Source of the DNA: Protoeuglena noctilucae
Lineage: Eukaryota
DNA: 64,000 nucleotides
Reading direction: 5' to 3'
Assembly (NCBI GenBank): GCA_958009085.1
Contig: OY253677.1
Coordinates: forward strand, 744,001 to 808,000
Each line of letters begins with the position of its first letter. Positions within the stretch are counted from its first letter, which is position 1. This document shows, in pieces, positions 3,126 to 62,468 of this stretch. The notes beneath the pieces were generated by a model that ran no database searches, was not told the origin of the DNA, and saw only the letters and a program-made list of their open reading frames with translations. A program made the position numbers and the translations under genes.

Positions 3126-4265
3126 ATGCACGCGGTGCGGCTCCCCGGACGGGGAGCGTGCACATGCGATCGGCTCGCGGCGCCCCCTGGCCGGGCTGTG
3201 CGTCCGCGCCGCACTGGGCATCCCTCCTCCGCTGAACGATGCGCGATCGTTCCGGCTGCGCTATTCGGTCGGCGCGAGGCTCTCGCCGCGGGCGTCACGG
3301 CCGGTCTGGTCGCTCTCCCTCGAGACGCAGCCGCGGCGCCCTCGTTCTACGACTTCAAAGCGTTCCGCTATGAGAAGGAGGAGAGCATGCGGCAGTTTGA
3401 GGGGAAAGTGCTCGTCGTGCTTAACGGTGCGCGACGGCACGCGGCTCGCACGACGCCGGCGCCCGTGGCTCGCACGCGACCTCCATCCGCCGGTTCCCGT
3501 CGCAGTGGCGTCGGAATGACCTCTGCAGCGCGTGAATTACCCTCAGCTCAGGATCCTTTACGACCGCTACCGCGAGTACGGCTTCGTGCCGGTCGCTTTC
3601 CCCTGCAACCAGTTCGGAGGGCAGGCGCCGGGCACGTCGCAGGAGGAGCGGGAGTTCGCGTGGAGCAAGTTCGGCATGGAGTTCCCCGTCTTCGACAAGA
3701 TCGAAGTCAACGGACCCGGCGCTCACCCGCTCTACCATTGGCTCCGTGAGCGCCAGCCATTCAGGCAAGCCCACTGGCTGCTTCAGACTACGCCCATCAT
3801 GGCCCCTGCAACGCCACGCAACACCCGTTGGCCCGTAGCTGCAACCTTTCTCTGTACACTATCGCAAGTGCCCCACAAGCAAACCACCTTCTGCCATCTC
3901 GCCCACTCCCCAGCCGTGTCTTGCGCCGTCACCGTCACACGTCACACGTCACGAACCCACGCCTCGCCCGCAGCGTGCCCTACTCCTCCCGGTCGGCCCC
4001 CCTCCCCAACCAAGCCGGGGGCGCCATCGAATGGAACTACGTCAAGTTCCTCGTCGACCGCAACGGGCAGCCCGTCAAGCGATACAAGCCGGCGTTCGAG
4101 CCACTGGACTTCGAAAACGACCTACGGCTGGTGCTGGCGGGGCACCCCCCCACTCCCCCAGAGTGCGCCTCCCACCCGGGCAGGATCGTCTGCCAGCTGT
4201 CGCAGTACGACGACCTACCGCCCAGGGTCACAGCAGGTGGTCTCGCATCATGCACATCACCCTGA
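3126..4265 (+). CDS. GPX: Selenocysteine-containing glutathione peroxidase, probably organelle-targeted
   Basis: Spliced product reads [13 protein letters not shown](TGA 3517-3519)[10 protein letters not shown]...[13 protein letters not shown]...[20 protein letters not shown]. The in-frame TGA falls at the catalytic position. Confidence 0.92.
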
Positions 4266-4476
4266 CCTGTCCCAGCGCGAGGTCACTGCGGGGCACTCAG
4301 GGTAGCACTATAAACAAGAAGCCACTCTCTGTTCGATCCGTCGCAGAGTAAGCGTCTCAAACTTCACGGATACCGACCCCCTGCACCTGACCTGCGCCAT
4401 CGGACGCCAATGTCACCGTCGCAGAGGTATCTGGACGTTCCCTAACTCTCTCCCTTATGATGTGGCGTTCCTGCCG

Positions 4477-4544
4477 CGAGGGCGGCGGCCCATGAGGCCC
4501 GGCGGGCAAACCACGCAATGGACCTGCCGGGCCGATTTACCTCG
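4477..4544 (+). promoter_or_regulatory. SECIS element (type II) in the GPX 3' UTR
   Basis: ATGA (4492-4495), 11-bp stem GGCCCGGCGGG/CCTGCCGGGCC, apical AAA (4508-4510) with CCA/TGG mini-stem, GA (4534-4535), lower helix CGAGG/CCTCG. Confidence 0.9.
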
Positions 4545-4698
4545 GAGCGCATGGCGTGTCGCGCGCAGTCCCTGAGCTCTCTGCGCGCGGCGTCGTCACC
4601 GCACCGGGCGCCGTACTGCCTTGCGTTGAAGGAATCGCCACAGCGGCACGAAGCGGCCACCAGGGTGCACGTGTACACTATAAGTGCGCTTGCTGTCG

Positions 4699-4703
4699 TG
4701 TAA
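4699..4703 (+). promoter_or_regulatory. Candidate chlorophyte-type poly(A) signal TGTAA for GPX
   Basis: TGTAA about 155 nt downstream of the SECIS. UGUAA is the established Chlamydomonas-type signal. Confidence 0.4.
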
Positions 4704-5009
4704 CGTCGCGGTCCTTCAAGCAGCCTCGAGGGGCGACGAGGACGACAGGCCGACGTCATCTGTAGCAGTGGGCGCGAGTGTGGCAACGTCGGCCTGCTAG
4801 GAAAGGTCAGCAAGCTAAGCTGGGATCGCTTGCCCGCCACCGCCAATAGTGGAGCAGAGCGCGTAAACGGGGGATGCGGGGATCGCGCGCCGTCGCAGGC
4901 CCTGGCCTTGGCCGGGCGCGACTGGCGAGGGGCAAGGCGCTCCAGCAAGCTGCAGCTGTTGTGCGGAGCGAGCAGCCCAGGGCGGCGACCCCGGCGATCG
5001 CGGGGCGAC

Positions 5010-8000
5010 TCAGAGCAGCGCGGCGGCGGCGACGGCGGCGGCCAGCGCCGCGCTGAGGGCGGCGGCCGGCGCGGCCGACTTGCGCGCGGCGGGCGTGGGC
5101 GTGGCGGCGACCGTCGCCTGGCACTCGGCGAGGGGCGTCGCGCACAGCGATGCGCTGATGACGTTGAAGGCCTCCCCGGTGGACACATTCCTGAGGTAGT
5201 AGGACGTGTAGCCCTTGGGGGCCGCGCTCGGCGCCGTGTACGGAAGCAGGTCCCTGCGACACAGGGGGCGCACGAGACGTGTGATGACAAGCGTGGAGCA
5301 GGAGCGTTTTACGGTGTCCGATGCATGTGAGCGTGCAGCGTGGCGCAGCGGCGGACGGCGCGCGTCGCAGGCGGGGCGTCGGTGCTCGTTGCTCGGCTCA
5401 CTTCATGACGCGCTCCGGGTGGGGGATCTCCGACTCGAACCAGTCCAGGCCGACGCTGTACTTGGCGTAGGTCTTGTCGTACCGCAATACGGTGCCGTTG
5501 GCCAGGAACTTGAGCGAGGACTGAAGGGACGCCGCGTTGTCCACCTGGCACCCGCTCGACGCCGACAGGCAGTAGGCCGCCTGGAAGGCAGCCATGTCTG
5601 CGGGGTGCGGACCGGATGGCGACCTGTCTCGCAGCATGGGATGGGCAAGGAAAGGACTGCATAGTTTTGGTTGGAGGGTCGATAGTTGCGAGCACCAGAC
5701 CGGATGCAGGATGCTGGCCGCCCAGGCCGGTGTTCGCAGTCCGGCTCACCGTAGGTGGACGGGTCGACCGCGTACGTCTCGTCGACGATCACGTCGGCGC
5801 CCCAGCTCTGCAGGTCCTTGAGCAGCGCGGCCGCAGCGGTCTTCTGGCTCGCGGCGTCCGTGTAAGTGTACTGCACGTCCCCAGAGGAGGACACGGTGCC
5901 ACTGGGGAAGGAGGACGTCGTGGGGAAGACGCCGGCTGCGAGCGGGGAGGGACATGGAGCACGAGTGAACGGAGGGAGTGCGGCGGATGGGAACGACAGT
6001 GGAAGTTTCCACCTCGGACAGGAGAGTGAGCGAGCTGTGGGGCGCCCAGCCTCGGCTGCCAGGGCGAGCGAGCGCGAGCGTCGTCATATCACATGGCCCT
6101 GGTCCAGCGCGACTGGCGTCGTGCGACTTGAGCATACATACATGCATACGAACATACACACGGATACCCGCGTGCACTCACCGGCGTCCTCGACGTGGGC
6201 CTTCTTGTAGGCAGCCATTGACACGACGTACATGGCGGGCGTGGTGCCGTAGCCGAGGACCTGCGAGACCCAGGCGACGCGCTTGAGGGTCGCGCCCTGG
6301 GTGGCCTGGGCGGCGGCGGCCTTGTCGCTGTTGTAGTCGGTGGAGATGGTGTTGAAGTACGAGTTGGCCACCGTCTCGAGGTTGAAGAACGTCGACAGCA
6401 TCTTGACCCACTCGGCGCGGTTCAGGGGGCCTGAGACGCACCAGAGAGAGGAAGAGTTGACGGCAGGGGCCGACAGGGGCTCGCGGAGGAGTAGAGAGGG
6501 CGTCATGTGCCGCAGTGACACGCTCAGCCCATCCCGCTACCCATACAGCCACGGGCACGTGGAGTGGAACTGCGTTTCGACTCGGCGCCAGCGCGAGCCT
6601 CACCGGGGTCGTCCGTGGCGACGAAGGCAGCCTGCTTGGCGTTAGAGTTGTCGAAGCTCCAGTTGAGCACGACGTCGACGGCGGCCGTCTGAGCGGCCGT
6701 GACCTTGGTCTCTGCCGTCGTGCTGGGGTAGGCGTTGAAGGTGGGGGGCAGGCCCTGGGCGGTGCAGGAGCCGTTCTTGCTGTAAAGCTGCGGGGGGGGC
6801 ATGGGCGAGGCACGGGGTTGCTGAGGTGGTATCCCAAGAGCCATCGCGGGAGCGGAGGCACGCAAATGAGGAGGGCGCGTCAAGGACCACAGCGGGCGCG
6901 TTGCTTAATTGCTGACCCTTCTTGACCGATTAAATGGCATGACCCAAGCAGCCTCAGCGGAGCGTAGTTCAAAACCACAGCGAGGGACTGCGCCTCACCT
7001 CGAGGGCTTGCTGGAAGCACGGGGAGACCGTGTAGTTGCTGAAGTACTTGACGGCGTTGGCCTTGCCGAGGGCGTCGACCAGGAAGCTGATGGACACGGT
7101 CTCGGCCGCAGCCACGGACTGGATAGGGACCTGGAAGGTCTTCTGCGTGATGTCGCCCGAGTAGCTCGGGATCTGCTGCTTGATCAGGTTGAGGCCCTCC
7201 TGCTTGGCGGAGGCCAGGTCCGATGCGGAGGGGGCCTGCGAGCCGCACAGCCACTGCGGGACGCGGAGCCAGGGCGCAGTTCGCATCGAGGCGGACGTTG
7301 AGCGGTGTTGCAGGAGGGCCAATCGCGCCTCCGGCAACGCGAGTCTCCGATCAACGCACAGCTTTGCAGTGACTCCAGGTGCAAGTGCCACGGACGTGCC
7401 CTGCATTGTGGCACAGGGCGGGATATCGCCAAGCAATGCTCACCAAAATGTACTGCTCGTAGTTGCTGCCGTACAGCTTCGTGTTGGGGTCAAAGACGGT
7501 GACGACCTTGTAATACTTGTGGTAAGACACGGAGAAGCGCTGCGCTGCGGTGACCTGCGGGCGCACGGGGTCGCGGGGGACGTTCACATTCGAGGCATCA
7601 TGCCGGCCTGGATGCGCGCGTTCGGGGCCCCTAGGCAACGCATTGGTCTATGGATGCGTCAAAGTAAACGGTAAGACGCCGCAAGTCACGCCAAAGCTGC
7701 GCTGAGCGACTCCTAGCCACGCCCGCGACGGGTGGCCTCCGGGTGGCGGCTCAACCACCCCGCGGGCGCCGTCGAGACGCACCCCCGCGTCCGTCTGAGC
7801 ACGGCTACCGCAACGATCGATAAAGAAGCTTCCGTGATCAACGGCATCGCTCGCATAGAGCCCCACAGACGCCGCGCGCGCGTCCCGAGTGCGCGTCGGA
7901 AAAACGCCGCTATCCGCCTCCTCCGTGATCGAGCTGGCTCGTGACTTTCCACATGCCTTGTGTTATGCTAAAGGGACATCAGGACCCCTCCAGACGTCGC

Positions 8001-8422: not shown

Positions 8423-10241
8423 TCACTTGGCGTCCCCCGCGATGCGATCCACCAGCGCACGCGCCTCGGGGGGGGCAAAGTACCTGGCCTGGATGAACAG
8501 GCGCTGCGCCTCGCCCTGCGACGCGACAAGTAGAACGGTTAGGGTAAAGCCAAGCGCACTATCAACTGCGTGTTTGTCACAAACACATCACACGTCCTCC
8601 TCAAGCAACCCACTCGCCTTGGCCCCGGTGTCTCGCAAAAGCACCGCCTTGGCGAGGTACCCCCGGAAGTCATCCGGCGCCACGCGCACGATCTCGTCGT
8701 ACACCGCCGCGGCGTCGCCCGTGTGCCCGCGCCACTGCGAGTAGACCTTGCCCAGCAGCAGGCGCGCCTCGACGGGCCCCACGCGCCCCTCACGCCCCAC
8801 CTCCGCCTTGACCACCTGCACCGCCTCCGCCTCCCGCCCCGCCCGCACCAGCGCCCCCGCCAGGCCCTGCAGCTGCTCCAGCCCCGCCTGATCCCCGGAG
8901 ACCTGAATTGACTTGCGATACGCGTCTGCTGCTTCGGGGTACTTGGCTTGGAACGCACGCACCTCCCCCAGCAGCCGCCACACGTCTGCGGGCACGCGCG
9001 GCATATCCGCTGGCGACACGGGCGACACGCAGGTGCACGCCGGCGCAGCGGGTCGGCGCTAGCCAAGGCTGTGAGTTGTGTGAGCCGTGTGCGTGTGCAT
9101 CGCATGTGTTGGTACCTGGGTCCCCGCCGTTGATCTTCGTCAAGGCCACGAGGCGCTCCTCGGCGTCCGCGTAACGACCCAGCTCCCCGTACATGACCGC
9201 CAGACCCTCCAGGGCCTCTGCATCCACAGCACACAGACGACCAAAGCGTGTCGTGAAGGCACGACAAATGCGGTTCCCCCAGCCCGGCCGGCTTGCTTCT
9301 CACCAGCATCGTCCGACTTCGCAGCGAGACGCGTCTCGAACTCCGCCGCGGCCTTTTCCCTCTGAGAGCGCTCCTCCGTGGTCAACAGCACCGTGGGTCC
9401 CTGGGCTGGCGTTGTCGAGGGCCCGCTGTACGAGGAGTCATCCGAGCTCGTGGCGAGGAGGATGCCCGCGAGAATCAGCGCCACTACCGCGCCGCTAATC
9501 TGCGCGGAGTTCCTCTGCGCCGGCGCGGCAGCGGGCGACGGCGATGGCGACGCCGCACTGCGGACCGAGCCTAGCGCCTGGGCCTGCGGTCCAAAGTGGG
9601 ACGATGCGGCTGCCATGAGATGTAAACGGGTATCAGATTGCGGGGCACGCACAGAACGCGGTGGGGAGCGCGGCGCCGCGGCTGCCGTGAGTGGATTAAC
9701 TTCCGCTCAGTTGCCCGTCGCTGGGTGCAGCGAAACCCTCCGCCGCTCTCACCATGGACGGCGGGTTGCTGTAATCGATCTCAGCAGCCAGCACGCCTCT
9801 GGAAGCCTCCTCCTGTGCCTCTTTAGCTGCGCGACCGGCGTCGGCTACGGCACGCAGCCGCTCCTCGAAGCGCGCCTCCTCGAGCGGGTTCGGCGCCGGC
9901 GCGTCGTTGGAACTCGACGGAGCTGACGTCTGCGCAAATATCGGAGCCAATGGTCCCTCCAGCGAGGCGCTCCGGCGGGCACCGCCTGTTGCACCGCTCA
10001 GCGGACGCACCAGCGCCAGCCGCGCATCGCTCGGCGGCCCATCTTGAGGGATGACCGGACGTTGCGTGCTGATCCTCTTCGCGCGCTTGGCAGCCTTGGA
10101 AGCCTTCTCCCCATCGCCTCCGTCGGGTGCCCGTGCCTTGAGTTTGTTGGGGTTGCCGAAGCCCGTGCCGCTGCTGCCCTGCGATTTGCTGGCGCTAACG
10201 CTCACCGCCCTGGGAGCTAGCCGGCTCCCCGTGGCGAACAT
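8423..10241 (-). CDS. Chloroplast membrane TPR-repeat protein (spliced)
   Basis: Transit peptide, one TM segment (ISGAVVALILAGILL), TPR motifs, and C-terminal YDEIVRVAPDDFRGYLAKAVLL..GEAQRLFIQARYFAP as in green-lineage TPR proteins. Confidence 0.8.
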
Positions 10242-17692: not shown

Positions 17693-19896
<2,204 letters not shown>

Positions 19897-20287: not shown

Positions 20288-23200
20288 CTATGCGATGCCC
20301 AGTCCCGCAGCCACCTCCCGCGTGATCTGCTGGCATGCCGCGGCGGGGCTGGGCGTGTCGAAGATGCCGCTGACGACCGCCACGCCGACCGCCCCCGCCT
20401 TCATGCACGGCTCGATGTTCCCCGGCTTGATGCCGCCGATGGCCACGACCGGCAGCGGCGACATCGCGCAGATCTTCTCGAGCCGGGCGAGCCCCAGGTC
20501 GACGTAATCCTTCTTGGTGGTCGTAGGGTACACCGCCCCGGCCCCGATGTAGTCCGCGCCCGCGTCGAACGCCGCCTGCACCTGGTCGGGAGTCTTCGTG
20601 GACACGCCGAGGATGCGGTCGGGTCCGATGATGCGCCGGACGTCCTCTGCGGGGATGTCGGACTGCCCAACGTGCACGCCGTCCGCTCCCACCGCCAGGC
20701 ACACATCCACGCGATCGTTGATGACCAGAGGCACGCCGTACTGCCGACAGAGCGCCAGGGCCTCCCGCGCCGTCGCCACGAACGCCCCCGCGTCCGTCTC
20801 CTTCTCCCGCAACTGCACGATCGTGGCCCCTCCCTCGATAGCCTGCCGCACGGCCTCCAGCATCGTCCGCCCCTGCCGCGCGTTGCAGTCGGGGTCCGTC
20901 ACGGCGTACACGCGGAGGTAGTTCGGGCCGCGCTTCAGGTCCCGCACCCACTCCCACCACCTGCGGGCGTGCACCAGGGTGGCAGTGCTGTCGCTCCCCC
21001 ATACCTGCCATCACCCATGCCAGGCCCCAGCCGTGGGTCTGCCCCATTCCAAGATATCATGTAACGACTACACGCGCCCTGCCACCAGCTTGGCAGGCAT
21101 CGTCATCCATGCCAAAGAAGAGAGACCCCAATGCACGCAGCCACTCCGCATCGCCCATCGCGCGCCGCGCTCACCTCCCCTCGGCCCAGCAGTGCGTCGC
21201 GTACGCGTGGTTCATGGGACGTTGACTGCCCGACCCGATCGCCAGCCCCACGGATGACCGAATGGCGCCCTGCACATACTTGCGCGCCAGCTGCACCGCC
21301 GTGCGTTTGCCGCACTCCATCGACAGGTGGGCCGCCACGGCGCTCGCCAACGTGCACCCCGTCCCGTGCGTGTTTGTCGCTTGGATCCACGGCCCGCGCA
21401 TCGCCACGGGACGCTCGCCGTCAAAGAGCACATCGACAGCCTCTTCGGGGTCCACCCCGCTCTTGTTGAGGTGACCGCCCTTAATGACCACGCACTTGGC
21501 ACCCATGGCGTGGATGTCACGCGCGGCGGCGATCATGTCCTCCTCCGTTGTGATCTGCCGGCCGTCCCCGAGGATCGTCTCTGCTTCGGGGATGTTGGGC
21601 GTCACGACTTCGGCTATGGGGAACAGGCGCTTCACGATCGCGTCCACCACGCCCGCCGTCGCCAGGGGTTCGCCGCTGCGGTTGCGATAAGGCGTATGGG
21701 GGTCAGGGATAAGCATTAGTGCTACTGCTGGAAGAGGCAACGGTTAATAGTACTATCGACCATCCGTCAATACTACCAAGTCTGGCTAACCAGCAGCAAC
21801 CCTGACCCCTCGACTCGCCTGATAGGCAAGAGAAATGCAGCTAGGTCACAGACACGCAGATAGATAGATAGACACACGCAGTTGGCCCCCCACATGTCAT
21901 CGTCAACTCGCCTGGTGGCGACGAGTACTGGGTCCACCACCAGCCTCGGTGCGTTAGGCCCCAGTCCCTCCAACGCATCCGCCACCGCCTCCACAATGTC
22001 CCTGCTGGCCAGCATGCCCGTCTTGACGCACCCAGCGCCGATGTCGTCCAAACACGACGCCATCTGCATGCGCACGAACGTTGCGTCCAGGGGGCACACG
22101 CCCTGCACGCCCTGGGTGTTCTGCGGGTGCCAGGGACGCAGGGAGAGTCAAGATAACATGCCTTTCTTGTATAGGTACCATACCATCCAATCGCACCCCA
22201 CCCCGATCCCTCGATGCAGTCACACCCCGTCGCACCCCACCCCACCCCCATCAAATCCGTCGCGGCCCTGACCACCACCCTCCCCACCTGCGCCGTCGCG
22301 GCCGTGAGAGCCGTCATCGAGAAGACCCCCAATGCTTCACATGTCTTGATGTCAGCCTGGATGCCCGCACCGCCCCCCGAGTCCGATCCAGCAATGATCA
22401 GCACCCGAGGGACGTCAGACGGGGTCGGTCGGAAGGGCGTCGGCGGACCGGTCTGGCCCTTGGCCTGGATAGACGCGGCACGCGCCCCGGCAAACACCCG
22501 AGGCGCCCCGTGCCCCCCGCCGCCCCCGCCCGCACCCCATCCCAAGCTCTCCAGGACATCCTCCCATGACGCTGCCGTGAAGACCGTTTTCGCGTCTGCC
22601 GCCTCAGCGTCCGCACCGGCGCCGGAGCGGACAGCGGGTGGCAGCGGCGCGACGTCCGCCCCCGCCGCCGCCGCCAGCCCCTGCACCTTGGGACTGCCCC
22701 CCATCAAAACGGCCTTCTGGCACGCCAGCATCGCCAGAAGGTCCGTGGCGGAGTCGCCGACGAAGGCGGCCGACGCGAGGCGGGGCCCCAGGGCGGCCTG
22801 GACTGCCCGGCGTTTGTCGACGGCCGAGTTGTATCGTAGCTCGATGCGACCAGTCGCGGTGCCGTCGGGCGCAAACTCGAGCTCATTGGCGTAGACGGCG
22901 ACCGCGTGCGGGTCGAGCGTCGGGGTGTCGACGGGCGCGGCGGGGATGCCCTGCGCCTGCAGCACCGCACAGACCAGCGTGGCAGAGAAGTTGATTGACA
23001 CTGCGTGGGGGGGAGAGACACGAGGATTGAGACTTGAGCAGAGTGCTGTTGACGAGCATTGTAAGAGAAGATGGAAAGGTGTTTACAAGGGCCAGTCAGC
23101 GCTGCTGTGTGCGCAGCTGTGACGGGGCAGAGAGGCGCACCTACGGCGACGGTGCAGCCGCTGTCGAGCAGGGCGCGGAGGGCGCGCGCCGCGCCGGGCC

Positions 23201-24311: not shown

Positions 24312-27300
24312 ATGTGGGAGAAGGCGTGGTCTTCGTGGATTTTATGGGCGGTGGTCGCCCTCGCAGTCCTACTTGCGTGGTGAGTGAACTGACGGGGAGA
24401 GCGTGGAGCGTTTTCGCTCGCTGGCGCGGCTCCGCTGCTGCTCGCTTCTGTTGCGCCCCCCCGCTTTGATTTCGGGTCCTCGCGGCGCTGCCGGCCACCT
24501 TGCCGGCATGTTTACGGATTTGATATCGTGTTCGTGCCTCCGTAACGAGGAGATGTAAGCTGTTACGACCCGGAGAGGTCTAGCAAGTGCGGGACTCCTC
24601 TACGCCGAAGAATCCGCCGGGAACTCGACATTGACCAGCACTGCTTTGTGCTCGGATGTTATGTTTTTCTCCTTCGACACGCCGCGCGTGTCCTGGCCCG
24701 CTCTGGCCGCGTCCCCGCTGTCGTACGACGCGCGAAGACCCGCATGCAACTTATGTCCGCTCCGGATGACGTCCTTCCGGGCGCGCCTTGGGCTGGATCA
24801 CGGCACCTGACCTCGAACGTCCCATCGCCGACGCAGGGCGACCGGGCCGTTGGACGCCCTGGCCCAGGCAGCGCTGTGCCGGGCCCTGGCCTTCGCCAAC
24901 GTCCGTGTCCGGCGTTGCCGCGTGCGCATACTTCGCGGAACGATAGTATTACAGGCGAGGGAGGCTCGCTGGCGGCTCACGGCTGCGAAGGGCGTCGCCG
25001 GGGAGGCGGACGCCTGCGTGCAATGCAAGGCAAGCGGGCCATCTCGGAACGCCGCCCGCCGCGCCCCTCGCAGTGTCTGGAGGTCGATCCGCTCTGGCTC
25101 GATGGTCTGGACTTGCCGGTCCTCACGCGCGAGCTCTGCGTGGATGAGGTGAACCTCAGCGTCGTCCCCGGCCTCGCGGGCGGCCCCCTCCCGCTCGCCG
25201 TGCGCGTGCGCGTCAGCGGGGCGCGGTGGCTCTGCGTCACGCGCAAATTCCCCACCGCGCGCGGCATGGCCGGCAGGGAGCGGCTGGACAGGGAGCTGCA
25301 CACGTCCATCCGGTGCGCGCCCCAGCACAAAGCGCAGCCGCCGCGATCGCGTCGCCGCCCTCGCGCGCCGCGCGTCTGCGATGATAATTGAATACTCATG
25401 ATTTCGATTCCCGCGATCGGATCGCCGCAGGAGTCGGAAGCTCGTCGACACGGAGGCGCTGCTATGGGACGAGCACTGGCGCGAGCGGTCGCCTCTGCGC
25501 AAGCTCCTGCGCTTCCTAATGCGCCAGTCGACGTACTACGCGCTCAGCGCTGTGGGGATCGAGATCGCGGACGTGGCCGTGGGCGTGCGGCTGGCCAGCG
25601 AGGGCGGGGAGGGGGCTGCGTTGGGTCACGACGATGGGGCGATGCGGGAGGCGGCGAGCGTTGGGGCCGCGGACGATATCTGGTGAGCGAATGTCGCGAA
25701 GTAGACTGATAGCGATACTCCTAAAGTAAGACGGACTCGCTAACACGCTTACACGCTGGGCAGGCCTTGGTAGTGCTGAGCGTGGTTGTTGCTCCTGTAG
25801 TGGATCGGTCCACCCACTCGCTTGTCTCTCATCGGCGCTCCGCGTGCCTCCGCCTTCGCAGGGGCAGCGCGATCCTGGTGCAGATGGGCGCGCTGAGCGT
25901 GTCCCGATCCCGCGGCAGCGCCCACGGCGTCCTGTCCCTATCGGTGGTGCTGAAGAACTTCGGTATTTCCGCGTTTTGCCCCTTCAGCTGGTCTCCGAGG
26001 GTCACGCAGCGGCCCAGCACACGCCGCCCATCATGGCAAGGCATCGGGACCGGGGCACACGGAAGCCCTGCGTCCGTCGTGCCCGTGCCTCTGGCAGACC
26101 CGACGCTGCCAGTCTTGCTGCCAGTGTTGCGGGGCGTGCGCGACAGCGCGGCCGAGGGCACGCCGGCGGGGCTGCTGCCGGGCGCGGGGAGGGCAATGGG
26201 GGTGGCGCAGCTGGGGGGGTATACCCACGACGTGATGAGGGGGGCGGGGGTGGACGACGGGGGTGGTATGGGGGTAGCCAAGGGGCGGGAGTGGGGTAGT
26301 GGGAGTCGCGGGGTGACGGGGGAGATGGGTGCGACGGGGGTGGGGGTGCGGAGTGGGGGGAGGGAGCGTGTGGGGGCGCGGGGTGCGGGGGCGTGGGTTG
26401 GGTGGGAGGAGTGCGTGGCGAGGGTGAGTGGCGGTGGTGGTGATGGTGGTGTTGATTGTTGAGTTTGTGGTGGGGCAGAGTGTCGATGGGATGATGCTGA
26501 TTGTCTTGCTACCTTTTGTAACACCCTCAATATGATACGTCACATCATTGCTTGATTAACATTACCTTTCCCCTCTTCCCTCTCACCCCTTAGTGGTCAT
26601 CGGGGTCGACCGTCGTCCCCCTCTTAAAGCGGTGGGGCGCCAAGGCTGAGCTGGAGTGGGGGGTGGCGAGCGCGTCGCACGACAAAGCACGGCCCCTCTA
26701 CCGGGCCACCATTGAACCCCACGCCGTGCTGCTGACGGGTGAGGGAGGGAGTGGGGGTGTGGGTGTGGGTGTGGGTGCCGGGGGGGGGTGGGTGTGGGGG
26801 CGTGGGTGCAGGTAGCAGTGGGGGTGTGTGTCAATCTCTTTACCACATTTCCATGTCAATCATCGCTAACAATCAATAGACCACTCTTGAACCCCTCACT
26901 CGCCCTCACTCACCCTCACCTTAACCCCCCACCCCCCCCGCAGTCAACCAGTCCTCCGCCCGCGTCTCCCTGGCCCTCGCCGGCGCCATTTTGGAATATT
27001 TCAAATACCAGAGATACCGGCAGGTCCGCCCGCAGCTCCCCGTGACCCGCGCCCCGCAGCAGTGGTGGGCGCACGCGATATGGTGCACGCGGCGGGAGCG
27101 CCACGTGGCGACGCTGCACTTCCGCGCGCCCACGGGCGGCCCGGGCGGGCCGGGGCGAGGTTCAAACAACGTAGATTCAAACATGGGGCAGCCGCAAGAC
27201 GGCGCGGGGAGCGAGGCGAGCCTGGGGGCGGTGACGGCGCTGGTGCGGCGGCGGCGGGAGTACAGGGCCGTTTACTTGCGCGTGAAACGGCTGGCGGCGT

Positions 27301-42300: not shown

Positions 42301-45300
42301 TGCGTGGCGGCGCTGCGGTCCGGGATGGGGGGTATGGGGGGCCAGACGCACGCGACAGGCGTGGTGTCGAACACGGCGAGCCCCGTTTGGAGCGAGTCGC
42401 TGAGATTCGAACCCGCGCAGCTGGGTGACACGCTGGAGGCGACGGTGATGCGCAAGCGGCGGGGGCGAAGCTCCAAGGCCATCGGCAGCGTGTCGGTACC
42501 TTTGGCGAACTTAGCGGACGGCATGCCTAGGTATGCATGGCTGCCCCTCACTGCGCGCGAGCGGGGGGCCGGCGAGGGTGGCGGGGACGGCGGCGTGGGC
42601 CGCGTGATGGAGACGGGGGAGCTTCATTTGCGCCTGCGTTGGCGCGACGACGTTGCTGAGGAGGATTCTGGCACGGTGGTGATTGAGGCGGTGCTGGGTG
42701 GGGTGGGGCTGTTGGTGGTGGACAGTGGGATGTTGGATATGCACACGCGGACGCCCAGGGAGCTGGTGTACACGTCTCTGAGTGCGGTGGAGCTGACTTT
42801 GCGAAGGACGCCGACCAAGGAGACGCTGAGGGTGGCGGTGCAGGTGAGGGGTGGGTGTGTGGGTGTGTTTGGAGACGCTGAGAGTAGCAGTGCAGTGAGG
42901 ACGAGAGATTGGGTAGGACTGGGGTTGTGCTTACTGTTCCATCACACGTACCTATCACATAACCCCCGCCCCTTCTACACACAGTCCATCCAAGTCGACA
43001 ACCAGCTCCTGTCCTCCGGCCACCCCGTCATGCTCGGCCGCTCCGCCCACGCCTACGCCCTCCCCCGCGCCGCCGCCGACGTCCCCGGACTGTCAGAAAC
43101 GTCCGCGGGTAAACCCTACCGCCAAATTGCGGAGGCGGAGGCGGCCGTTCCCCCGATGCTGGAAGTGCGGTGGGACCGGCAATTCACCAACCCCACCATC
43201 CAGTTCTTCAAGCTCTTCACCGTCGTCATACTGGCAAGTGATGGTACTACTGTGTATATCCATAGTAATTGTTGTTGTTGCTCGGTATATTATGGACATA
43301 CTGACATAGAAGATTTCATTTACGTTAGTTACAAGCGACTGGTCTCGCAAATTTTTTGCTTATCGTATTACTTACACAATTATATTATTACTACGCAGGA
43401 GATGGACCTGGTGGTGGAGGAGGAGTTGATTGACGCGGTGGTGTCGATGGGGGCGCGGCTGCCATGGGACGATCTGTGGCAGGGGAGGGGGGGGGGGAAG
43501 ACAACGAAGGCGCCGGGGCAAGAACTGCAGGTGAGAGATGAGGGATGGGTGGGTGGTGGGAGAGAGAGAGAGATGTAGAGTAGCAGGGCAGTCCACTCAC
43601 CCCCACTCCCACCCTCACTGCCACCGCCACCCTTGCTGCCACTGCCACCACCACCCCCATTGCCACCCCCACTGCTACCCTCACCCTCACCCCTACCCTC
43701 ACCCTCACTGCTACCCCCACTCACCCCCACTCGCTCACCCTCACAACAACCCCCCCCCATCTCTCCCCTTCTCAGTCCCTAATCGAGCGCCTGGCCTCCT
43801 CGGGCGACGTCTCGGCCGCCGACCTGAGCCCCCGGAAATACTACTTCGAGCTATTCCTCATCCTCCCCATCCGCGTGAATATTTCCGTGGTGCCCTACGC
43901 CGCCGGCCGGGGCGCCAACGCAGGATTGGACTATCTCACAGACCCCCGCCTGGGATCGGCCATGCGACTGTTCCGGTCCCTGGGCATCAATCTGCTGGAT
44001 ATCGATAACGTGCCGGTCCACATCGGGGTGCTGGAGCTTCGCAACGTGATGCCCGACCACCGGCAGCTGATGAACGACATGTGCCAATTCTACCAGAGTC
44101 AGGCGATCCACGAGGTGTACAAGGTTCTGGGAACCGTCGACATCCTCGCGCCGGTCAGTTTCGTGGCGAACGTCTCCTACGGCGTGCTCTCGCTGTTTCT
44201 GGCGAGCAAAGAGGGCAGCGCGCGGTCGGTGGCGCTGGCCCTTGCCGAGGGGACCGGGTCGCTCATGAAGAGCAGCGTGTACGGGACCTGCTTGACCGCG
44301 GGGCAGATGGTGGACGGATTCGCGAAAGGGTTCTCGATGCTGGCGTTAGACGATCAATACCTGCTGCGGTCGCGCCGGCGGCCGACGGGCGTGCTGTCGG
44401 GGCTGTCGCTGGGGGCCCAGGACCTCGTGTCGGGTGAGGGAGGGTGGTTTATCATATTTAGCATATTTATGATGTGAGTATATGATAGGTGGGGGTATTG
44501 GTGGTAATGGATGTGATGGGTTGAGTGTCACACATGTGGGGCTGCGGTCAAGTGTACTGTAGAATGCCATACTTACACATCCATTATATTGATTACAAAT
44601 TACCATATAAAGTATTTACCATTTCATATTCAACCACCCCACCGCAGGCTTCGTGGACGGCGTGGCGGGGCTGGTCAAGGCACCGCTCGTGGGCGCAGAG
44701 AAGGCAGGGACGGTGGGCTTTGCCCGGGGGCTGCCGACAGGTGTCCTCGGCATCGCATTCAAGCCCGTCTCTGGCGTTCTGGAGTTCACGAGCAAGGCGG
44801 TGGCGGGGGTGGCGGCCTCCGTGCAGCGACTGGGGGTGCGGGGGCGACCTGGGGCGCCAGAATCGGTGTCAGAGCTCTCCCGCGCCCGCAACCCGCGCGT
44901 GGGGATGGTCGGGGCGCATCTCGGGTCGAACGAGACTCTGTGTGCCAAGTGGACGGAGGTGGTGCGGCGCGTGAGGGCGGGGAGGTACAGGACAGAGCAC
45001 GTTGTGGATTTCCTGCAAAACAAGCCCAACAAGGCGGTTTTGCTAACCAACGACCGCGTGGTGTACTTGAATCTCAAGAAGCGGCAGGTCCGGTGGACGG
45101 CGCGGTACGGGAGGTGAGGGGGGTGGGTGGGGTATGGGTGGTGGTGGTGGGGTGGAGTTGGTTGGTGTGTGATGTAGTGTGTAGCTGTGGCATGTTGAGT
45201 GGTGTGTGGAGGTTTGTGCATGGCTTACCGGCACTGCCACCCCCACTGCTACCCGCACCCTCACTGCCACCTTCACTCCCACCATCACTGCTACCCCCAC

Positions 45301-46702: not shown

Positions 46703-47920
46703 GGGGTGGAGTGGGGCGGTGGTGGAGTGGGGTGGTGGTGCAGGGGTGCAGGGGTGGAGTGGTGCTGGGTGGAGGGGTGGAGGGGTGGAGTGGGGCGGTG
46801 GTGCAGGGGTGGAGTGGGGCAGAGGTGGCGGTGCTGGGTCAGGTTGCTTACGATGATGCGTGCGACATTGGGCTGAGAGGGGCTGGCCTGAGGCATGCGT
46901 GATTGGTGATCCTAAGGGCCAGATCGTGATGCGTTGTTTGACTGCTTGAAGGATTCTACCCTCTGTTTGAGGGCGGAACTCGTACCACCGCCGCTGCTGT
47001 GTTTCCTGATGCTGCGCATCCTAGCTTTTGTCCCTTTTCCCAGAGAGCGGCGCTTTCTCGCTTTTAGTATACCCTCTCCGCTAAGCGACTTCTCGTGACA
47101 AAGTGTAGTTGCCCCATCCTATCTCATAGATTGGTCCGTCCGACCTATTAAAACGCAAATGTGTGGGTGTCCTCATCCATCCTCTCGCCACGCGACATGT
47201 GCGGTAACCAAAGATGCTGTCATGCTATCATGTGAAAGCGTGGAGGTGGCCCGGCCCTCGGAGATACGCCGATGACCCTGCGCGAGAGAAGGGCGTATTC
47301 GGAAAACACGTGCACCGCAAGACATGCGGCGCTGGGCCCGCCACGTTGTGCAGACTCGCCTGAGGACTTTTGTCCGTGATGTGTCAATGATCCGAGGCCT
47401 GAACTGAGGGCTGCGGGCGGGGAGGGGGCAGATGTCTCGGCCGAGCCTGTGCGCGACGACAGCGGCCCGTGCGCGCGCGCGATGGGACCGCCAGACGTCA
47501 GATACCAAAGATATTGCTATAATATACATGGCGGCGCTCACGTTTCGCGATGAGCCTCAGGAGGAGGAGCAAGCACAGCGCTGCAACGACACCCAGCACT
47601 GCTGAACGCGTTGACACCATCACGTCCCTCCCATCAGCCCAACACGCGGCGGTCAGGTCCTGAAACCGAGCCAGATAGCGACTGGATGACAACGCTGCGT
47701 GTGTTTCACCGTCGGCCCCGCAACAAGGATGACCCAGGTCATACCGACAGACCATCGGCCGTGCTGGCTTGGCTTTCAACAAATCCCAAGCCTCGCCGGC
47801 CATGTAGCTGAAGACATGCTGCGCTTGGTAACCCAATCAAAGGTCAAACGAAAGGTCAACGACAGGCGACGCCCGTGCATGCACAAGGTGGCTTTTGCGA
47901 CGTCGTGAAAATCGACCCGC

Positions 47921-49795: not shown

Positions 49796-50035
49796 CACAG
49801 GCCCAGCATTGCCCGGCCTTGCCAGCCTTGCAACATGGCCAATATGTATAGCACGTTGCCATGCTAAGCGAGTGGTGTGGACCCGCTTGCCCGGCCGACG
49901 TCGGCGCCGTGGGGTCGGTCGAGTGTGTGGAGAGGCGAAGCTTTTCTGGTCTGCCCTCTGGCGTCTCAGATGTCGTCTGGCATGCTTCAAAGCTCGCATG
50001 TGCTGCCGCCGCCGCTGCTGCTGCTGCTCTGCGGC

Positions 50036-50430: not shown

Positions 50431-50727
50431 CCAGCCTCCCGGCAAACTTTCTTTCCGTCCGCGCTTCCAGTCGCCCAGCCTAGCCGACGTCTTTCCGCAC
50501 CTCTCCTGCACGCACCTGCGCACCAAACTGGCACTCATGGTGAGCAGACCAGCGGCAGGAATGGCTCAGGACCTTCGTTCCTAGCAGCCCAGCGTCGCCA
50601 TGCGCAGTCTGCACAGCACCCGCTGCCACTGCTGCTGTCATAAACACGCATGTGGCCACTGGCATGGACGCGCGACAAGACCATGCCTGGCTCAGCGCCA
50701 TGCATGCGCGTCCAACAGTGACCCTCT

Positions 50728-56217: not shown

Positions 56218-56472
56218 CGTTTGTCCGCCAGAACGCCGCGCTCGAGACTTTATGCATGGATTTTTCGTGTACGTTGATCTGCTCGCGACTCGCGTCTCGC
56301 TGTCCGTTTCCCAGCCTTCTTCGCTCCGGCCTGGCGTCGTGAGCTGCGGGCATTGCTTCGGTGTGATCTCTTCCCGGCAAAGCGGGGCACCTGGTCGCGG
56401 CGCGCTGTTCGCACGGGCTAATTTTGAACGTTTTGCGTGTGTTTCTGGGCAACTCGCGATCGAAAAGGCGCC

Positions 56473-59400
56473 ATGTCGCTGCGGCGAGCTGCGTGCAGCT
56501 GGGCCGCTGTGGCTCCCCGGTTAAGCCCCCGGGGGCCTCAATGCGCCGCCTTCGCATCTGCTGCCGAGGAGCTCGATCGCAAAGCGCAGGCGAGCATTGC
56601 GAATCGGGCTTACAACTTGCCGGCTCGCCGGTTGCTGGGCCGCGAGCAGCTCCGCAATGCGAGTGCAGAAAACGCACCCGCGACTCCTTCCCGCAGGAGC
56701 ACGGGCCTCTGGCGGGCATCCGTGTTTTGGACCTCGGCCAGGTGAGCCGCGGCGTCGGCTGTTCGCGGGGGATTCAGGCGGGAGAGGCGATTCACGATCC
56801 GCTCGCCGCTGCTCCGCGCAGGTCGTCGCGGGCAACTTCGCGGGCGCGATACTGGCCAATTTCGGGGCGGACGTCATCAAGATCGAGAGCCCGAAGGGCG
56901 ACCAGCTGCGCTCGCTGCGTGTGCGCGACGACGTGGGCACGTCGCTGTGGTGGCGCTGCCACAACCGCAACAAGCGCTGCGTGACGGTGGATTTGCACAA
57001 GGATGCCGGGAGGGACATTGTGCGGAGACTGGCGCAGAAGAGCGACGTGCTGATTGAGAATTTCCGGCCCGGGGTGATGGAGGGGTGGAAGCTGGGGCCG
57101 GGCGACCTGCCGCCCTCGCTGGTCTACGCCCGCATCAGCGGGTACGGCCAGACCGGGCCATTAGGCGAGTAGATTGTATGCTGGAGACACCATAGATATT
57201 TGCATCCATTGATTTTGTTCCTGTACACTACATACAAGAACATGGATCGTGGCGTGTCACGCAAACGTGCTTGATGCTTGCAGCCAAGTTGCCGGGGTAC
57301 GGGTCCGTGTGCGAGGCGTTCGGGGGATTCAGGTGACCTGATTGAGTGGCAGGTGTATTGTTGTACAACATGGGTAGATGTTACATGAGTAGATGGTTTG
57401 AAGACACACACGCACTTGCAGACCCACCCTCATAGCATCCGCATCTCTTCTCACCCCAACCCCCAGGTACATCAATGGTTACCCCAATCAACCCCCTTCT
57501 GTGTTCTCATCCCACCACAGGTACATCAATGGTTACCCCAATCAACCCCCTTCTGTGTTCTCATCCCACCACAGGTACATCAATGGTTACCCCAATCAAC
57601 CCCCTTCTGTGTTCTCACCCCACCACAGGTACATCAACGGTTACCCCGACCGTCCCCCCGTCCGCCCCAACACGAGTCTGGGTGACAACCTGGCAGGCAT
57701 CCACGCAGCGCTGGGCATCGTGATGAGTCTCCTGCACCAGCAGCGCATGCGGGGGATGGGGGATGTGAGGGCGCCGGGGCAGGTGATGGAGACGTTGGGT
57801 GGGTGTGTGATGAGCTGTGATGCACTTGCAGTAGCAATGCATGGGGCTGGGGGACAAGAGTGCGCCAGGGCAGGTGAGGGAGGGTAATGCTTGGGAGGTG
57901 CTGTGGTGAGTTCACTGCACCTGCAATGGCAATGCACGCACATAAGCTCGTGCTACATCCCCAGGTAGTGGACGCCGCCATTTCCGAGTCGGTGTTTAAC
58001 ATGATGGAGGCGTGCGTGTCGGAGTACCTGCATGCGGGGGTGGAGAGGCAGCCCAGCGGGTCCACCATCTCGGGGGTGGTGCCCAGCGGGACATTCAAGA
58101 CCAAGGCGAGGGGTTGCGTGTTGTGTGGATGTAGCATGAGTGGTGATAGGGGTTTGCATTCGGTCTGTGCCTAGTTAGCACCGCAGGTTGATATCCTCAT
58201 AATCATTTCTCATCCCCACCTGTCAATATCGCAGGACGGCCATTGGGTGGTGATCGGTGGCAACAGCCACTTTCAATTGTAGTTATCATTACCCATATCA
58301 CTCCCCATGCCCACCGCAGGACGGCCCTTGGGTGGTGATTGGCGGGAATGGCAACTCTACTTCTTGATTATCACCCTCCTACACATCTCCCTTCGTCATC
58401 GCAGGACGGCCATTGGGTGGTGATCGGCGGCAATGGCGACTCTGTCTATTCTCGCCTGATGTCGGCCATTGGACGGCCGGACATGGGTGCGAGTAACCCC
58501 CGTTACGCCACCAATGCCGACCGCATGAAACACGAGGGGGAGGTGATGGGGGCGATCGCCGAGTGGTGCGAGGGGCGAACGAGGGACGAGGTGCAAGCGG
58601 CGATGGATGAGGCGCGGTGAGGGGGGTGATAGGGTGGGGTGGGGTGTTGAGTGATGTGTTGAGTGGGGAGTGAGGGTCTGTGTTGTGTGGAGGTGCAAAA
58701 GGCGATGGATCAGGCGCGGTGAGTGGGGCGCTGTGTTGAGTGGTGGTGGGTGGGGTTGAGGAGGGTTGTGAGGTACACTAACAGACATCCATCTCATCCT
58801 CTGTGTCTCACCCCGCAGTGTCCCCGCGGGTCCCATACTCTCGGTGGGTGACATCACGCGCAACGAGCAGTACGCAGCGAGGGGCATGATCGAGGAGGCG
58901 CCTGTGCCGGGTGAGATGAGTACATATGTGATTCTGATTGCGTGACTGTGTGATTGAGTTAGATGAGCAGTACGCAGCGAGGGGCATGATCGAGGAGGCG
59001 CCTGTGCCGGGTGAGATGAGTACATATGTGATTCTGATTGCGTGACTGTGTGATTGAGTTAGATGAGCAGTACGCAGCGAGGGGCATGATCGAGGAGGCG
59101 CCTGTGCCGGGTGAGATGAGTACATATGTGATTCTGATTGCGTGACTGTGTGATTGAGTTAGGTGAGCAGTACGCAGCGAGGGGCATGATCGAGGAGGCG
59201 CCTGTGCCGGGTGAGTGGAGTGGGGATGATTAGATGTATGAAGCTGTTATGTATTATAAGTATTATCAACCCATCCATCAGCACAGCCACGATCGTTGTT
59301 ACCTTGTGTCCCTGCAATGACTGGATAGCAGCAGCAACAACAACAACAACAACAACTCTCACACCATCCCCCCCTCTCTCCCTTCCCAGGCCACTCCTTC

Positions 59401-59562
59401 TCCATTTCTGTCCCCGCCATCCCCCCGATCCTCAGCCGCACGCCCGGCAAGACGTGGACGGCGGGGGCGGACCTGGGCTACCACACCAAAGAGGTGCTGA
59501 TGCAAGAACTGGGGATGAGTGAAGTTGAGGTGGAGAGGCTGAGGGCGCAGGGAGTGATTTGA
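56473..59562 (+). CDS. Class III CoA-transferase (CaiB/BaiF, SUGCT-like), probably mitochondrial
   Basis: GPLAGIRVLDLGQVVAGNF, GADVIKIESPKGD, NRNKR, DVLIENFRPG, ISGYGQTGP, LGDNLAG, LGYHTKEVL. Confidence 0.92.
57461..57650 (+). repeat. 54-bp tandem repeat spanning a 3' splice site
   Basis: CAG|GTACATCAA at 57467, 57521, 57575 and 57629. Confidence 0.92.
58865..59215 (+). repeat. 100-bp tandem repeat spanning a 5' splice site
   Basis: GAGCAGTACGCAGCG...CCGG|GTGAG starting at 58865, 58965, 59065 and 59165. Confidence 0.93.
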
Positions 59563-59844
59563 AATACGAGCAGAGGGGGTGCTTGGAAGTGATACGTGGG
59601 ATAGACGAGGCGACGATGTGTACGCTGCTCATTATTGCCGATATCACCGTCTTGAATCTATGCCTGCCACAGACAGCGACTGTGATGACCGTGTCTATTC
59701 AACCTCGCGCAAGCTGTCTCTTGCACTCAAAGCACCTCCCTATCATCCTATCTCCCACTAGCCCCATCCCATTGACCCATCGTAATATGAGCCTCCCCAG
59801 CTCCGCCCTCCTCCTCATCAACCCTCCATCATCACCTCCGCATC

Positions 59845-62468
59845 TCAAATGAGTTTCCCCAGCTCCGTCTTCTTCCTCATCAGCCCCCTCGCTTTATCGA
59901 TGCCCCCCTCGATGAGCCCAGACACCGTGAACACCCCCCCCACGATGGCGCACACTGACGTCAGGAACGTCAGAAACCCCATGCGGCGCTCCTCCACCAT
60001 CACTTTGATGGGGGAGAGCTCGTAGAAGATGAACAGGCCGGGGAGGGTGCTGCCGAAGCCGGAGCGGTCGACCTGAGTTGGGGGCGGGTGGGGTTGGGAT
60101 GGGGTTACTTTGGATGGAGGTGTTGATGTGGAGTGTGAGGTGGGTGTGAGTGACACGGTTGCTTCAGAACAGGGGGTCAAAATCATAATAATAATAACAA
60201 TAATAATCAATAATTGAATGAACACTTTTTATCACAAGCTCTCGCCTGCGTCTTGACGTGGTCGGTGACGCTGATCTGGTTGCTGGCGATGGTCTTGCCA
60301 TTAAGAGTGGTGTAGGTGGTGGGGACCACCTTCACGAAATACTGGAACTGGGCGCCCTTGGGGGAGCTGGGAAGGGGACATAAGGGAAATGAGATTATGT
60401 TATGCAAGGGGAGTGGGCATCAAACGTGCGCATATATGAAGACAAAAACAGAAAATACAACAAAATATCAAAATTAAATATAATAACATATAAATAACAT
60501 ATATCATAATACATATTATAAATATTACAATATTACAAATCACCCCCCCCCGTCTCACCCCGCCGCGTCGTGCTTGGCCCCGTCCATCGGATGCGACACC
60601 CCGGGGAAGTCGTCCCCGAACCTGACCTTCCCAATCACGTGCGAAAAGTCAAACACCGCGTCTTGCGGGAACACCTCCAAGTCATGCATGTGGGCGCCTA
60701 GCGCGTAGTTGGAGCGGCCGGGGGCGATGTGGAGGTTGCCGCCGATGCGTGCTGTGGTGACCTTGCCCACCACCCGGCACCCCTCGCCCCGCTGCGCGCG
60801 GATCGCGGCTTCGTAGGCGGGGTCCTGGCACTGGGCGAATTGCTGGGGGGGAGATGGGGGGGGGTGTGGGTGGGTGTGGGTGTGGGTGTGGGTAGCAGTG
60901 TGGGTAGCAGTGTGGGAGTGAGAGGGAGAGTGAGAGTGAGAGTGCAGGGAGCAGTGTGGGTGTGGGTGTGGGTGCGGGTATGGGAGCGAGAGTGAGAGCG
61001 CAAGTAAGAGACAGAGCAATTCAACTCACCCGGGGGTTGACGGCCCACCCCATGGCCTTGTACGCGTTGATGACATCCTCGCAGGAGTTGCAGCACCCAG
61101 TGGGGCTCTTGGCCGCATAGCAGCTGCCACAGCCGGGCGTGCCGCCGGGACCCATCGCCCCCTGACCCGACGCGCCCGCGTTGGCGTTTGCGATTGCACC
61201 GTTGGGGTTGGAGTTGGTGGTGGAATTTGAATTTAAGTTATTTGCACCTCCTGCGGTGCTTCCCGATCCCTGCTTCTCCCCCACCTGAGTGGGGAGGGAA
61301 GGGGGCGGGGTTAAGAGGTGAGGGTCACTGAGGGCTTAATTGGGAATGTCACGTGTTCATATGAAGCATGGGAGTGTTAACAAACTCCAGACATCGTGTA
61401 TGATGATTGCCCTGGATGGATGACGCGCCTGCCTCAACACCCCCTTCAAGCGACACACCCATACCTCCCCATCCACACCTGACCCGCCCACATGAATCCC
61501 TCACCTTGCTGTTCGTCCCATACACATCAATGACGTTCCCTTTCGCGTCCAATCGGTACTTGGTCACGTCCCCCTCAGGCGCCATATGAGCATCGCCCGT
61601 GCTGTCCATCACGTCGACGGTCAGCCAGGTGCACGGGGCGCGTGGGAAGGTGACGTCGAAGGTGATGTCCAGCTGCTCCATGCGAGTCGTGTCCACCACC
61701 AGGCGGTGCGTGGTGTCAACCGACAGGTAGCGCCTGGGGGGAGCGGGGGGAGTGGGGTGAGTTAGCAGCGAGGCATGGGTTGTTTCAGTTGTTTCTGACA
61801 GGAGGGAGGTGCGCGGTGTCACCGCGCATCTACAAGCATGTTGAGCCTTGGCTTTCACAGTCAGCATCCCCAACATGCCACCCCCCTCACCTCAGCTCTC
61901 CCAGGAGCAGCAGCACCAGCGCAGTCATGCACCACACTTGCACTCCGTCTCAATCACCTCAGCTCCCCCAGGAACAGCAACACCATCAGCACCAGCGCAG
62001 TCACGGTCAGCATGCCGCCCGACAGGCTCCTTTGAAAGCTGCCCTCGTCCTTGACCTGAGGAGAGGAGAGTAGAAGGTTGCTTACCAAGTTGCAAGCTAA
62101 ATGCTGCAGGGTGGGTGGCGGGATCCAGTGCGCATGGTGGAACGGGCTGTTGCCGGCGCACAAGCAGCATTGCCATTGCGCAGCCCCCTTGCCTTGGGGA
62201 AGGCGTCCAGGCGCTTGAGCACCGAGAGCGGGTGCGAGTCGTCGTTATCCGCGTCATCGGGAGTGTCCACGCGCGCCGCGCGCCGCCGCAGTCCGTCAGA
62301 AGCGAAGGGTGGCGGGGACGACTGGGGAAACGAGGCGATTTCCCCGGCCGAGACGCCCGTCCCGTTGCCTGCGACGCGTCGAAAATAGAATATGAAACCG
62401 CTAAGAGCAAATGCTTGATTGCTCGCATCGCAGCCGCGGCGCGGGGGGCATGCAAAGTGCGCGGGCAT
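59845..62468 (-). CDS. ERGIC3: ER-Golgi intermediate compartment protein 3 (Erv46); start uncertain
   Basis: LKRLDAFPK, LDITFDVTFPRAPC, CGSCY..CCNSCEDVINAY, EGCRVVG, GNLHIAPG, FQYFVKVVPT, LPGLFIFYELSPI, C-terminal LGKLI. Confidence 0.92.

Follow-up and report, generated by a model that had tools for sequence, protein, structure and literature searches.

Frequent GC-AG introns in a G+C-rich 64-kb stretch of the Protoeuglena noctilucae assembly

Introduction

Introns that begin with GC and end with AG make up about 1% of introns in animals and plants (PMC3167603), and shares of 0.3-2% for plants and animals and 4% for one red alga have also been quoted (bioRxiv 10.1101/2024.10.30.620910). In the haptophyte Emiliania huxleyi, GC junctions accounted for 135 of 241 manually mapped cases, 61% of Cufflinks models and 65% of 270 inspected cases (Feldmesser et al. 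2014, BMC Genomics 15:148, PMC4028052); 13 were verified by reverse transcription PCR (RT-PCR), and the authors attribute the phenomenon to the 65% G+C genome. Among pelagophytes and their relatives, gene predictions give GC-AG shares of 14-17% for Aureococcus anophagefferens, about 14% for Pelagomonas calceolata and 0.32% for a low-G+C relative (bioRxiv 10.1101/2024.10.30.620910). For green algae, GC-AG and AT-AC introns together amount to 7090 of 124,435 (5.7%) in Chlorella sorokiniana and 496 of 8831 (5.6%) in Micromonas pusilla, with five other green algae below 1% (Pucker & Brockington 2018, PMC6310983). Among the matches listed for the literature on GC-AG introns in haptophytes, green algae and pedinophytes, none went further than the papers on E. 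huxleyi and the pelagophytes and these green-algal counts, and no green alga had more than 10% GC-AG. Here we consider the introns of a 64,000-nucleotide stretch of DNA (the window; contig OY253677.1, positions 744,001 to 808,000, from the Protoeuglena noctilucae assembly GCA_958009085.1), in which a first-pass annotation had noticed unusually frequent GC-AG introns and listed ten of them.

That observation is confirmed, and the earlier description slightly understated it. Among 15 intron joints seen in RNA, 11 can be placed as GT..AG only and four as GC..AG only. The resulting GC-AG share of 4/15 (95% interval 8-55%) has a probability of 1.2e-5 under a 1% rate and of 0.005 under a 5% rate, and so, as had been claimed, lies far above the norm of about 1%. 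These introns are of the same class as the GC-AG introns of animals and plants, which likewise need a strong remaining consensus, and differ from them in being roughly 10-25 times more frequent. E. huxleyi offers a close parallel, being a marine alga of about 65% G+C whose GC donors are paired with a near-invariant AG acceptor, as confirmed there by expressed sequence tags, RNA-seq and RT-PCR, and whose introns contain tandem repeats, which are present in this window too (PMC4028052). GC donors are the majority there (56-65%), however, and 4/15 is incompatible with a share of 60% (P=0.009 for four or fewer); moreover, E. huxleyi is a haptophyte, whereas the nearest named relatives of two proteins from this window are green algae. 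The pelagophytes are alike in their similar share, marine habitat, G+C-rich genomes and composition-based explanation, but have 0.19-0.92 introns per gene (bioRxiv 10.1101/2024.10.30.620910) compared with 6-8 here (THI4 6, ERGIC3 6, CoA-transferase at least 8), and their figures come from gene predictions, whereas five introns were seen in transcripts here. C. sorokiniana and M. pusilla are G+C-rich green algae with raised counts, yet these annotation-pipeline-dependent counts are three to four times below the share found here (PMC6310983). We are therefore probably dealing with a known kind of phenomenon, in a lineage for which we found no report of it.

Results

The RNA evidence consists of contigs from four marine metatranscriptome runs of one study (X1-X4), which contain 46-74% of the sampled words of the region 55-63 kb, compared with 94-95% in another four runs, all from a single labelled organism. 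The contigs of X1-X4 were aligned to positions 43000-62999, the 20-kb span richest in claimed donors (five), and for each joint every placement within the alignment slack was tested for GT/GC-AG-type ends. The joints analysed are 15 of 29 RNA joints, and those of the claimed introns at 43234, 60245 and 62192 fall outside the 15. The verified acceptors were CAG in 15 of 15 cases and AAG in none. None of the 15 joints appears in run X1, which resembles DNA or unspliced RNA in its behaviour.

Three of the four GC-AG introns found in this way lie on the plus strand in a family III CoA-transferase gene, and for each of them GC..AG is the sole GT/GC-AG-type placement. The intron at 57165..57283 (119 nt) is removed in contigs of X2 and X3, and the Pfam CoA_transf_3 match leaves room for the following 49-nt exon at profile positions 129-145. 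An unspliced X4 contig over 57118-57493 agrees with the window at every base, which shows that the C at +2 (57166) exists in the X4 sample too. At 58106..58404 (299 nt), where X2 and X3 again show the splice (side 142 nt), the Pfam profile coordinates are continuous over the joint. The intron at 56590..56696 (107 nt; X2 and X3), with the donor cag/GCGAGC (the slash marks the exon-intron boundary), was outside the earlier list, and its GC..AG placement lies at shift +5. Also outside that list is a minus-strand intron of an unnamed transcript at 47278..47359 (82 nt; X2, X3 and X4; donor cag/GCGAGT), for which the only GT/GC-AG-type placement reads CT..GC on the plus strand. As a separate observation, the CoA-transferase gene carries tandem duplications at 57448-57647, 58230-58443 and 58865-59215 (+), with units of 54, 85 and 100 nt that match at 95%, 77% and 99%. 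Each duplication copies an intron/exon boundary, leaving identical acceptors or donors in a row; the joint end at 57628 lies in the last copy of the first array and that at 58404 within the second array.

A fifth GC-AG intron was confirmed by transcript-derived proteins for THI4, at 18261..18456 on the minus strand (196 nt). P0011, a protein of 277 aa encoded on a JGI contig of 1481 nt, is 100% identical to the window exons joined at 18456/18260. P0133, a member of the same cluster with 346 aa (contigs from JGI and Logan, none longer than 1430 nt), matches the same join at 100% identity. In the genome, the 277 residues are spread over 1582 nt without an open frame of this kind, so these contigs must be spliced transcripts; of the other THI4 introns, P0011 spans three and P0133 five. 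The Pfam Thi4 profile passes from position 149 to 150 over the joint, which also had the top junction score among 33 candidates. A metagenome scan with THI4 returned 49 loci, none of this species (best segment identity 83%). Three of these (L041, L042 and L049; 75% G+C, possibly from one organism) have an intron at the codon boundary of 18456 with a GT donor, which fits a single-base flux at +2 of an old intron. Independently of its splicing donors, THI4 contains a thiamine pyrophosphate (TPP) riboswitch aptamer (Rfam RF00059, 62 bits, full length) at 19301-19408 (-), within the second intron (about 19485 to 19290, as mapped via the full-length transcript protein P0133). Control of genes by TPP riboswitches through alternative splicing is known in other algae and fungi, and the THI4 element probably governs its gene in this way, depending on thiamine.

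In all, five GC-AG introns have transcript proof: 56590, 47359 and three of the ten that had been claimed. At those three (18456, 57165 and 58106), the transcripts remove the intron exactly at GC..AG and not at the GT rivals, which answers the question of whether nearby GT donors are used instead. All ten GC motifs exist where they had been reported, nine as AG/GCRAG and one as TG/GCAAGT, and the remaining introns divide into three supported by homology (21911, 62192 and 60245), three supported by context alone (8617, 24955 and 43234) and one, 3765, that has a live GT rival. All 12 introns described here start with GC and end with AG. For claimed introns, we scored every frame-compatible pairing of a GT or GC donor with an AG acceptor, using a matrix derived from the 15 RNA joints, position +2 being excluded; the claimed GC donor was top-scored at 18456, 21911, 62192, 60245, 24955, 43234 and 3765.

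Pfam scans of 286 open frames (150 plus 136) named the genes involved, namely a glutathione peroxidase, a TPR protein, THI4, a bifunctional HMP-P kinase / TMP synthase, a very large VPS13-like gene with VAB and C2 domains, beta-helix and kinase genes, the family III CoA-transferase and an ERGIC3/Erv46-like gene. In the HMP-P kinase / TMP synthase gene, the claimed intron at 21676..21911 (-; 236 nt) joins Pfam Phos_pyr_kin positions 98, 99 (a split codon) and 100 without a break. Its score of 14.0 was the best of 27 candidates, the best GT reaching 4.4; a second AGGCGAG at 21818, within the intron, scored 13.7 but would add 31 residues. For the TMP-synthase exon, the ESM Atlas returned only bacterial clusters, which gave no guide to the taxonomy of the host. 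This gene also shows, in the frame at 21844-23082 (-) that holds the HMP-P kinase start, about 230 upstream residues that match nothing in Pfam and may represent either an additional N-terminal domain or an exon structure still to be resolved.

Two claimed introns of the ERGIC3/Erv46-like gene, both on the minus strand, are likewise supported by homology. At 62056..62192 (137 nt), P0001, the sole close homologue found (74% identical), crosses the joint without a gap, Pfam ERGIC_N resumes in the following exon, at profile position 14, and the score of 14.4 was the best of 40. The intron at 60073..60245 (173 nt) scored 8.9, the best of six candidates, with the best GT at -5.0. Its GC model yields a loop of seven residues, compared with 3-10 in six homologues from a representative search, and the alignment of P0144 starts at 60072, exactly where the next exon is predicted to begin. 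The Pfam COPIIcoated_ERV match extends to position 172 in the read-through open reading frame (170 at the last exon residue) and resumes at 178. Elsewhere in this gene, the summed word depth of run X1 reached 9455 over 60342-61008, against 1-35 in the other 28 covered bins; this segment is an intron with simple CA-rich repeats coding for His/Thr/Pro, and the peak most likely reflects low-complexity sequence shared with other organisms.

Context supports a further three. At the start of the VPS13-like gene, the intron at 24955..25073 (+; 119 nt; donor cag/GCGAGG, CAG acceptor) scored 15.2, with the runner-up at 3.4 and the best GT at -4.8. To the eye, the flanking peptides look like a VPS13 N-terminus; the first exons gave no Pfam match and no homologue alignment. 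Late in the same gene, the intron at 43234..43398 (+; 165 nt) has the sole TG/GC donor. From this donor runs an AT-rich stretch of 165 nt whose third-position bias is wrong, flanked by two exon parts rich in G+C at third codon positions; the junction scored 3.0, compared with 2.2 for a GT at 43324 that would add 30 AT-rich codons. In run X1 (one contig, depth 7.9), base 43232 (+) is A where the window has T, so that the final codon of the exon encodes Gln in place of Leu and the TG/GC donor becomes a standard CAG/GC. No VPS13 homologue aligned across 24955 or 43234: P0004 lies within one exon, P0005 ends before 43234, and arthropod VPS13D gave a weak match only, near 27.0 kb. The introns and flanks of this gene at 43598-43754, 45232-45337 and 46697-46828 are packed with degenerate 12-36-nt tandem repeats that are C/A/T-rich or G-rich. 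The third context-supported intron, at 8516..8617 (-; 102 nt; donor aag/GCGAGT, CAG acceptor), precedes the last exon of the TPR gene. Reading through it meets a stop after nine codons, whereas the direct join preserves a repeat spacing of 34 residues, which is the spacing of TPR repeats; a weak GT at 8593 would insert eight residues.

The least certain of the ten is intron 2 of the glutathione peroxidase gene, claimed at 3765..3973 (+; phase 2; donor cag/GCAAGC). Donor 3765 forms the top frame-compatible pair with an acceptor at 3913 and the second-best with 3973. Against it stands a GTGAGC donor at 3746, 19 nt upstream, which keeps the frame when joined to an AAG acceptor at 4014, and the loop under the GC model also exceeds that of solved peroxidases by 11-12 residues. 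The rival needs an AAG acceptor, however, whereas every verified acceptor is CAG. PDB chain 2vup_A aligns with the exon, including five residues past 3746, and with the next exon from a point shortly ahead of the conserved Trp motif. Weighing these points, we think that the donor is probably GC. The same gene has an in-frame TGA at 3517-3519 (+), exactly where the catalytic Cys/Sec belongs, with the conserved VNY motif four residues further on, and would thus probably encode a selenoprotein; no SECIS element was matched in Rfam at E of 1 or below in 4200-5200, downstream of the gene.

The verified GC donors are set apart by the bases around them. The full context AG/G.RAG was present in five of five transcript-verified GC donors as opposed to three of 14 GT donors (Fisher p=0.0048), and in eight of eight compared with five of 21 when homology-verified introns were included (Fisher p=0.0003). 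The first-pass annotation had proposed a lineage in which recognition of +2 is relaxed; this finds no support, as the GC donors are consensus-rich rather than average-looking. They instead show compensation, as ordinary GC-AG introns do, which is the opposite of a generally relaxed +2 position. Since every verified GC donor has the full context, GC appears to be tolerated only when the donor makes all its other contacts at full strength. GCRAG, the reading of all 12 donors, is a major-type pattern that the window's GTGAG donors share. U12-type (minor) introns, whose 5' splice site is an extended and highly conserved box right after the first two bases, were considered and rejected; the donors here lack that box and all read GCRAG.

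How large the GC-AG share might be was approached in several ways. Including the four THI4 introns spanned by P0011 brings it to 5/19, and adding THI4 introns I and II, whose GT donors were read from Val codons in the read-through, to 5/21; with the homology-supported introns it becomes 8/29. A window-wide 7-mer enrichment test, which needs no gene models, gave 38 copies of AGGCRAG where 20.25 +/- 4.8 were expected from 100 shuffles, and 24 copies of AGGTRAG where 10.0 +/- 3.3 were expected, neither count being reached in any shuffle (0/100 for both). The control motifs AGGARAG (11 observed, 9.15 expected, 28/100 shuffles reaching the observed count) and AGGGRAG (17 observed, 17.3 expected, 56/100) were flat. 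The full 7-mer is carried by five of 21 verified GT donors; once this is allowed for, the excesses of the two motifs correspond to a GC share of roughly 19-23%. The share of 10-15% that had been estimated by a rough manual count of 70-80 introns holds as an order of magnitude, while the exact figure was, if anything, low. A coding-contrast scan of G[ACGT]RAG sites was rejected as a way of counting donors, with the background of 6-9% for A or G at +2 too near the rate of 8.7% for C. Several AGGCRAG copies are common to paralogous genes (16506/48846/51800, 16933/49267 and 17170/49507), and some of these may be further conserved GC donors. The paralogues themselves are beta-helix genes at 15.4-17.2 kb (-) and 47.9-53.2 kb (-), the latter also with a protein-kinase domain, and lie where the GC skew is strongly negative.

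Discussion

Taken together, the data are best accounted for, in our judgement with good probability, by ordinary U2-dependent introns that carry C at +2 and that have become common through a G+C-rich composition combined with compensation. In a genome of about two-thirds G+C, composition pressure would favour a change from T to C at +2. Such a change would be tolerated only where the exon ends in AG and the intron has RAG at +3 to +5, so that the remaining contacts with U1 and U6 could offset the single mismatch at +2. Over time, strong donors would then drift to GC while weak donors would remain GT. In this window, the G+C content is 0.57-0.74 in 31 of 32 2-kb bins (mostly 0.62-0.74; 0.49 in the bin with an N gap), which places the window itself in the range of about 63% or more that marks GC-AG-rich algal genomes. 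We infer that composition pressure is the cause, that the spliceosome is conventional and that the window is typical of its genome.

It might instead be supposed, along the lines of the first-pass annotation, that the splicing machine itself has changed, through the 5' end of U1, through U6 or its methylation, or through U1C or SNRNP27K, such that T and C at +2 are no longer separated. A GC share some 10-25 times the usual 1% would be in line with this, as would the share of about 60% in E. huxleyi, which perhaps goes beyond what composition alone can do (PMC4028052). An altered machine predicts GC donors of average appearance, however, and those observed are all consensus-rich (p=0.005 for the comparison with GT donors). 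RAG at +3 to +5 is present in every verified GC donor, and AG at the exon end is missing only at the unverified 43234, where the X1 variant restores it. We accordingly regard such a change as improbable. No small nuclear RNA gene lies within the 64-kb window.

Ordinary introns with a compensated C at +2 must also be weighed against the possibilities that the GC sites are not donors at all, or that their abundance is confined to this region. In DNA this rich in G+C, chance motifs could pass for donors while the real ones were nearby GT sites; about 20 chance matches to AGGCRAG are expected in the window, and GT alternatives exist at 3746 (frame-compatible, for 3765), 8593 (for 8617) and 43324 (for 43234). 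This explanation is refuted at 18456, 57165, 58106, 56590 and 47359, as the transcripts are spliced there exactly at GC..AG. At 21911, 24955, 60245 and 62192 the best GT scores 9.6 to 20 lower and adds 6-34 residues in conserved domains, and AGGCRAG is enriched whereas the controls with A or G at +2 are flat; mis-modelling as a general explanation is thus very hard to credit. That GC-AG introns are frequent only in these genes or this chromosome region, with a near-normal share genome-wide, is suggested by the limit of 64 kb, by the choice of regions that contained claimed donors, and by the clustering of verified cases in few genes, three of the eight joints analysed in the CoA-transferase gene being GC-AG. 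GC donors nevertheless span at least eight genes on both strands over 58 kb. Two introns, 56590 and 47359, were found by RNA alone without preselection, one of them in a gene without a claimed donor, and the effect is genome-wide in published G+C-rich algae (PMC4028052; bioRxiv 10.1101/2024.10.30.620910). A purely local effect consequently seems unlikely.

Several points weigh against the composition-and-compensation account or reduce the figures on which it draws. Composition as the cause is a correlation borrowed from other lineages, and the case for a conventional spliceosome is made by the compensation pattern alone. The homology-supported GC donors had been selected by someone seeking the motif, and only the transcript-only comparison of donor contexts is free of that bias. 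The estimates of the share may all be biased upward, since they draw on 15 of 29 joints and since the 20-kb region and the homology genes were picked for claimed donors, and the motif excess is inflated by the paralogue copies of AGGCRAG. The joined forms, furthermore, were read in RNA runs only.

As to the host, the best named match of THI4 is in Pedinophyceae sp. YPF-701, a green alga (84%), and the same organism provides the best named match of the ERGIC3 relative P0001 (44%; 259 bits, compared with at most 212 for the rest). The leader peptide of THI4 has the look of a simple transit peptide of green algae. From these two genes, and short of a phylogeny, the host is likely to be a green alga. 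If this is true, then a GC-AG share of about one-fifth would be several times the 5.7% maximum among seven green-algal annotations (PMC6310983), and G+C-rich algae would have evolved heavy use of GC-AG at least three times, in separate lineages, which would strengthen composition, filtered by compensation at neighbouring positions, as the driver. A bolder proposal would be that a pedinophyte-near green alga, with about one-fifth of its introns GC-AG, sustains them because the early recognition of 5' splice sites has changed in its lineage (for instance through a U1 variant or a changed U1C), beyond the effect of composition alone, which would amount to an independent third origin. We consider this unlikely, although if true it would offer a natural system for studying how the spliceosome reads +2. 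Otherwise, no new question about splicing itself is opened by these data. The practical consequence lies in annotation: gene finders restricted to GT would mis-predict a sizeable share of exons here, as has been documented for E. huxleyi (PMC4028052), and annotation of this organism should permit GC donors in the AG/GCRAG context.

Other observations

The window is eukaryotic nuclear DNA with a single gap of 200 N at 29289-29488. Two steep G+C troughs interrupt a level of about 66% elsewhere, one at 41300-41400 (0.18-0.34), within the VPS13 intron at 41246-41427, and the other at 28001-30000 (0.49), around the N gap.

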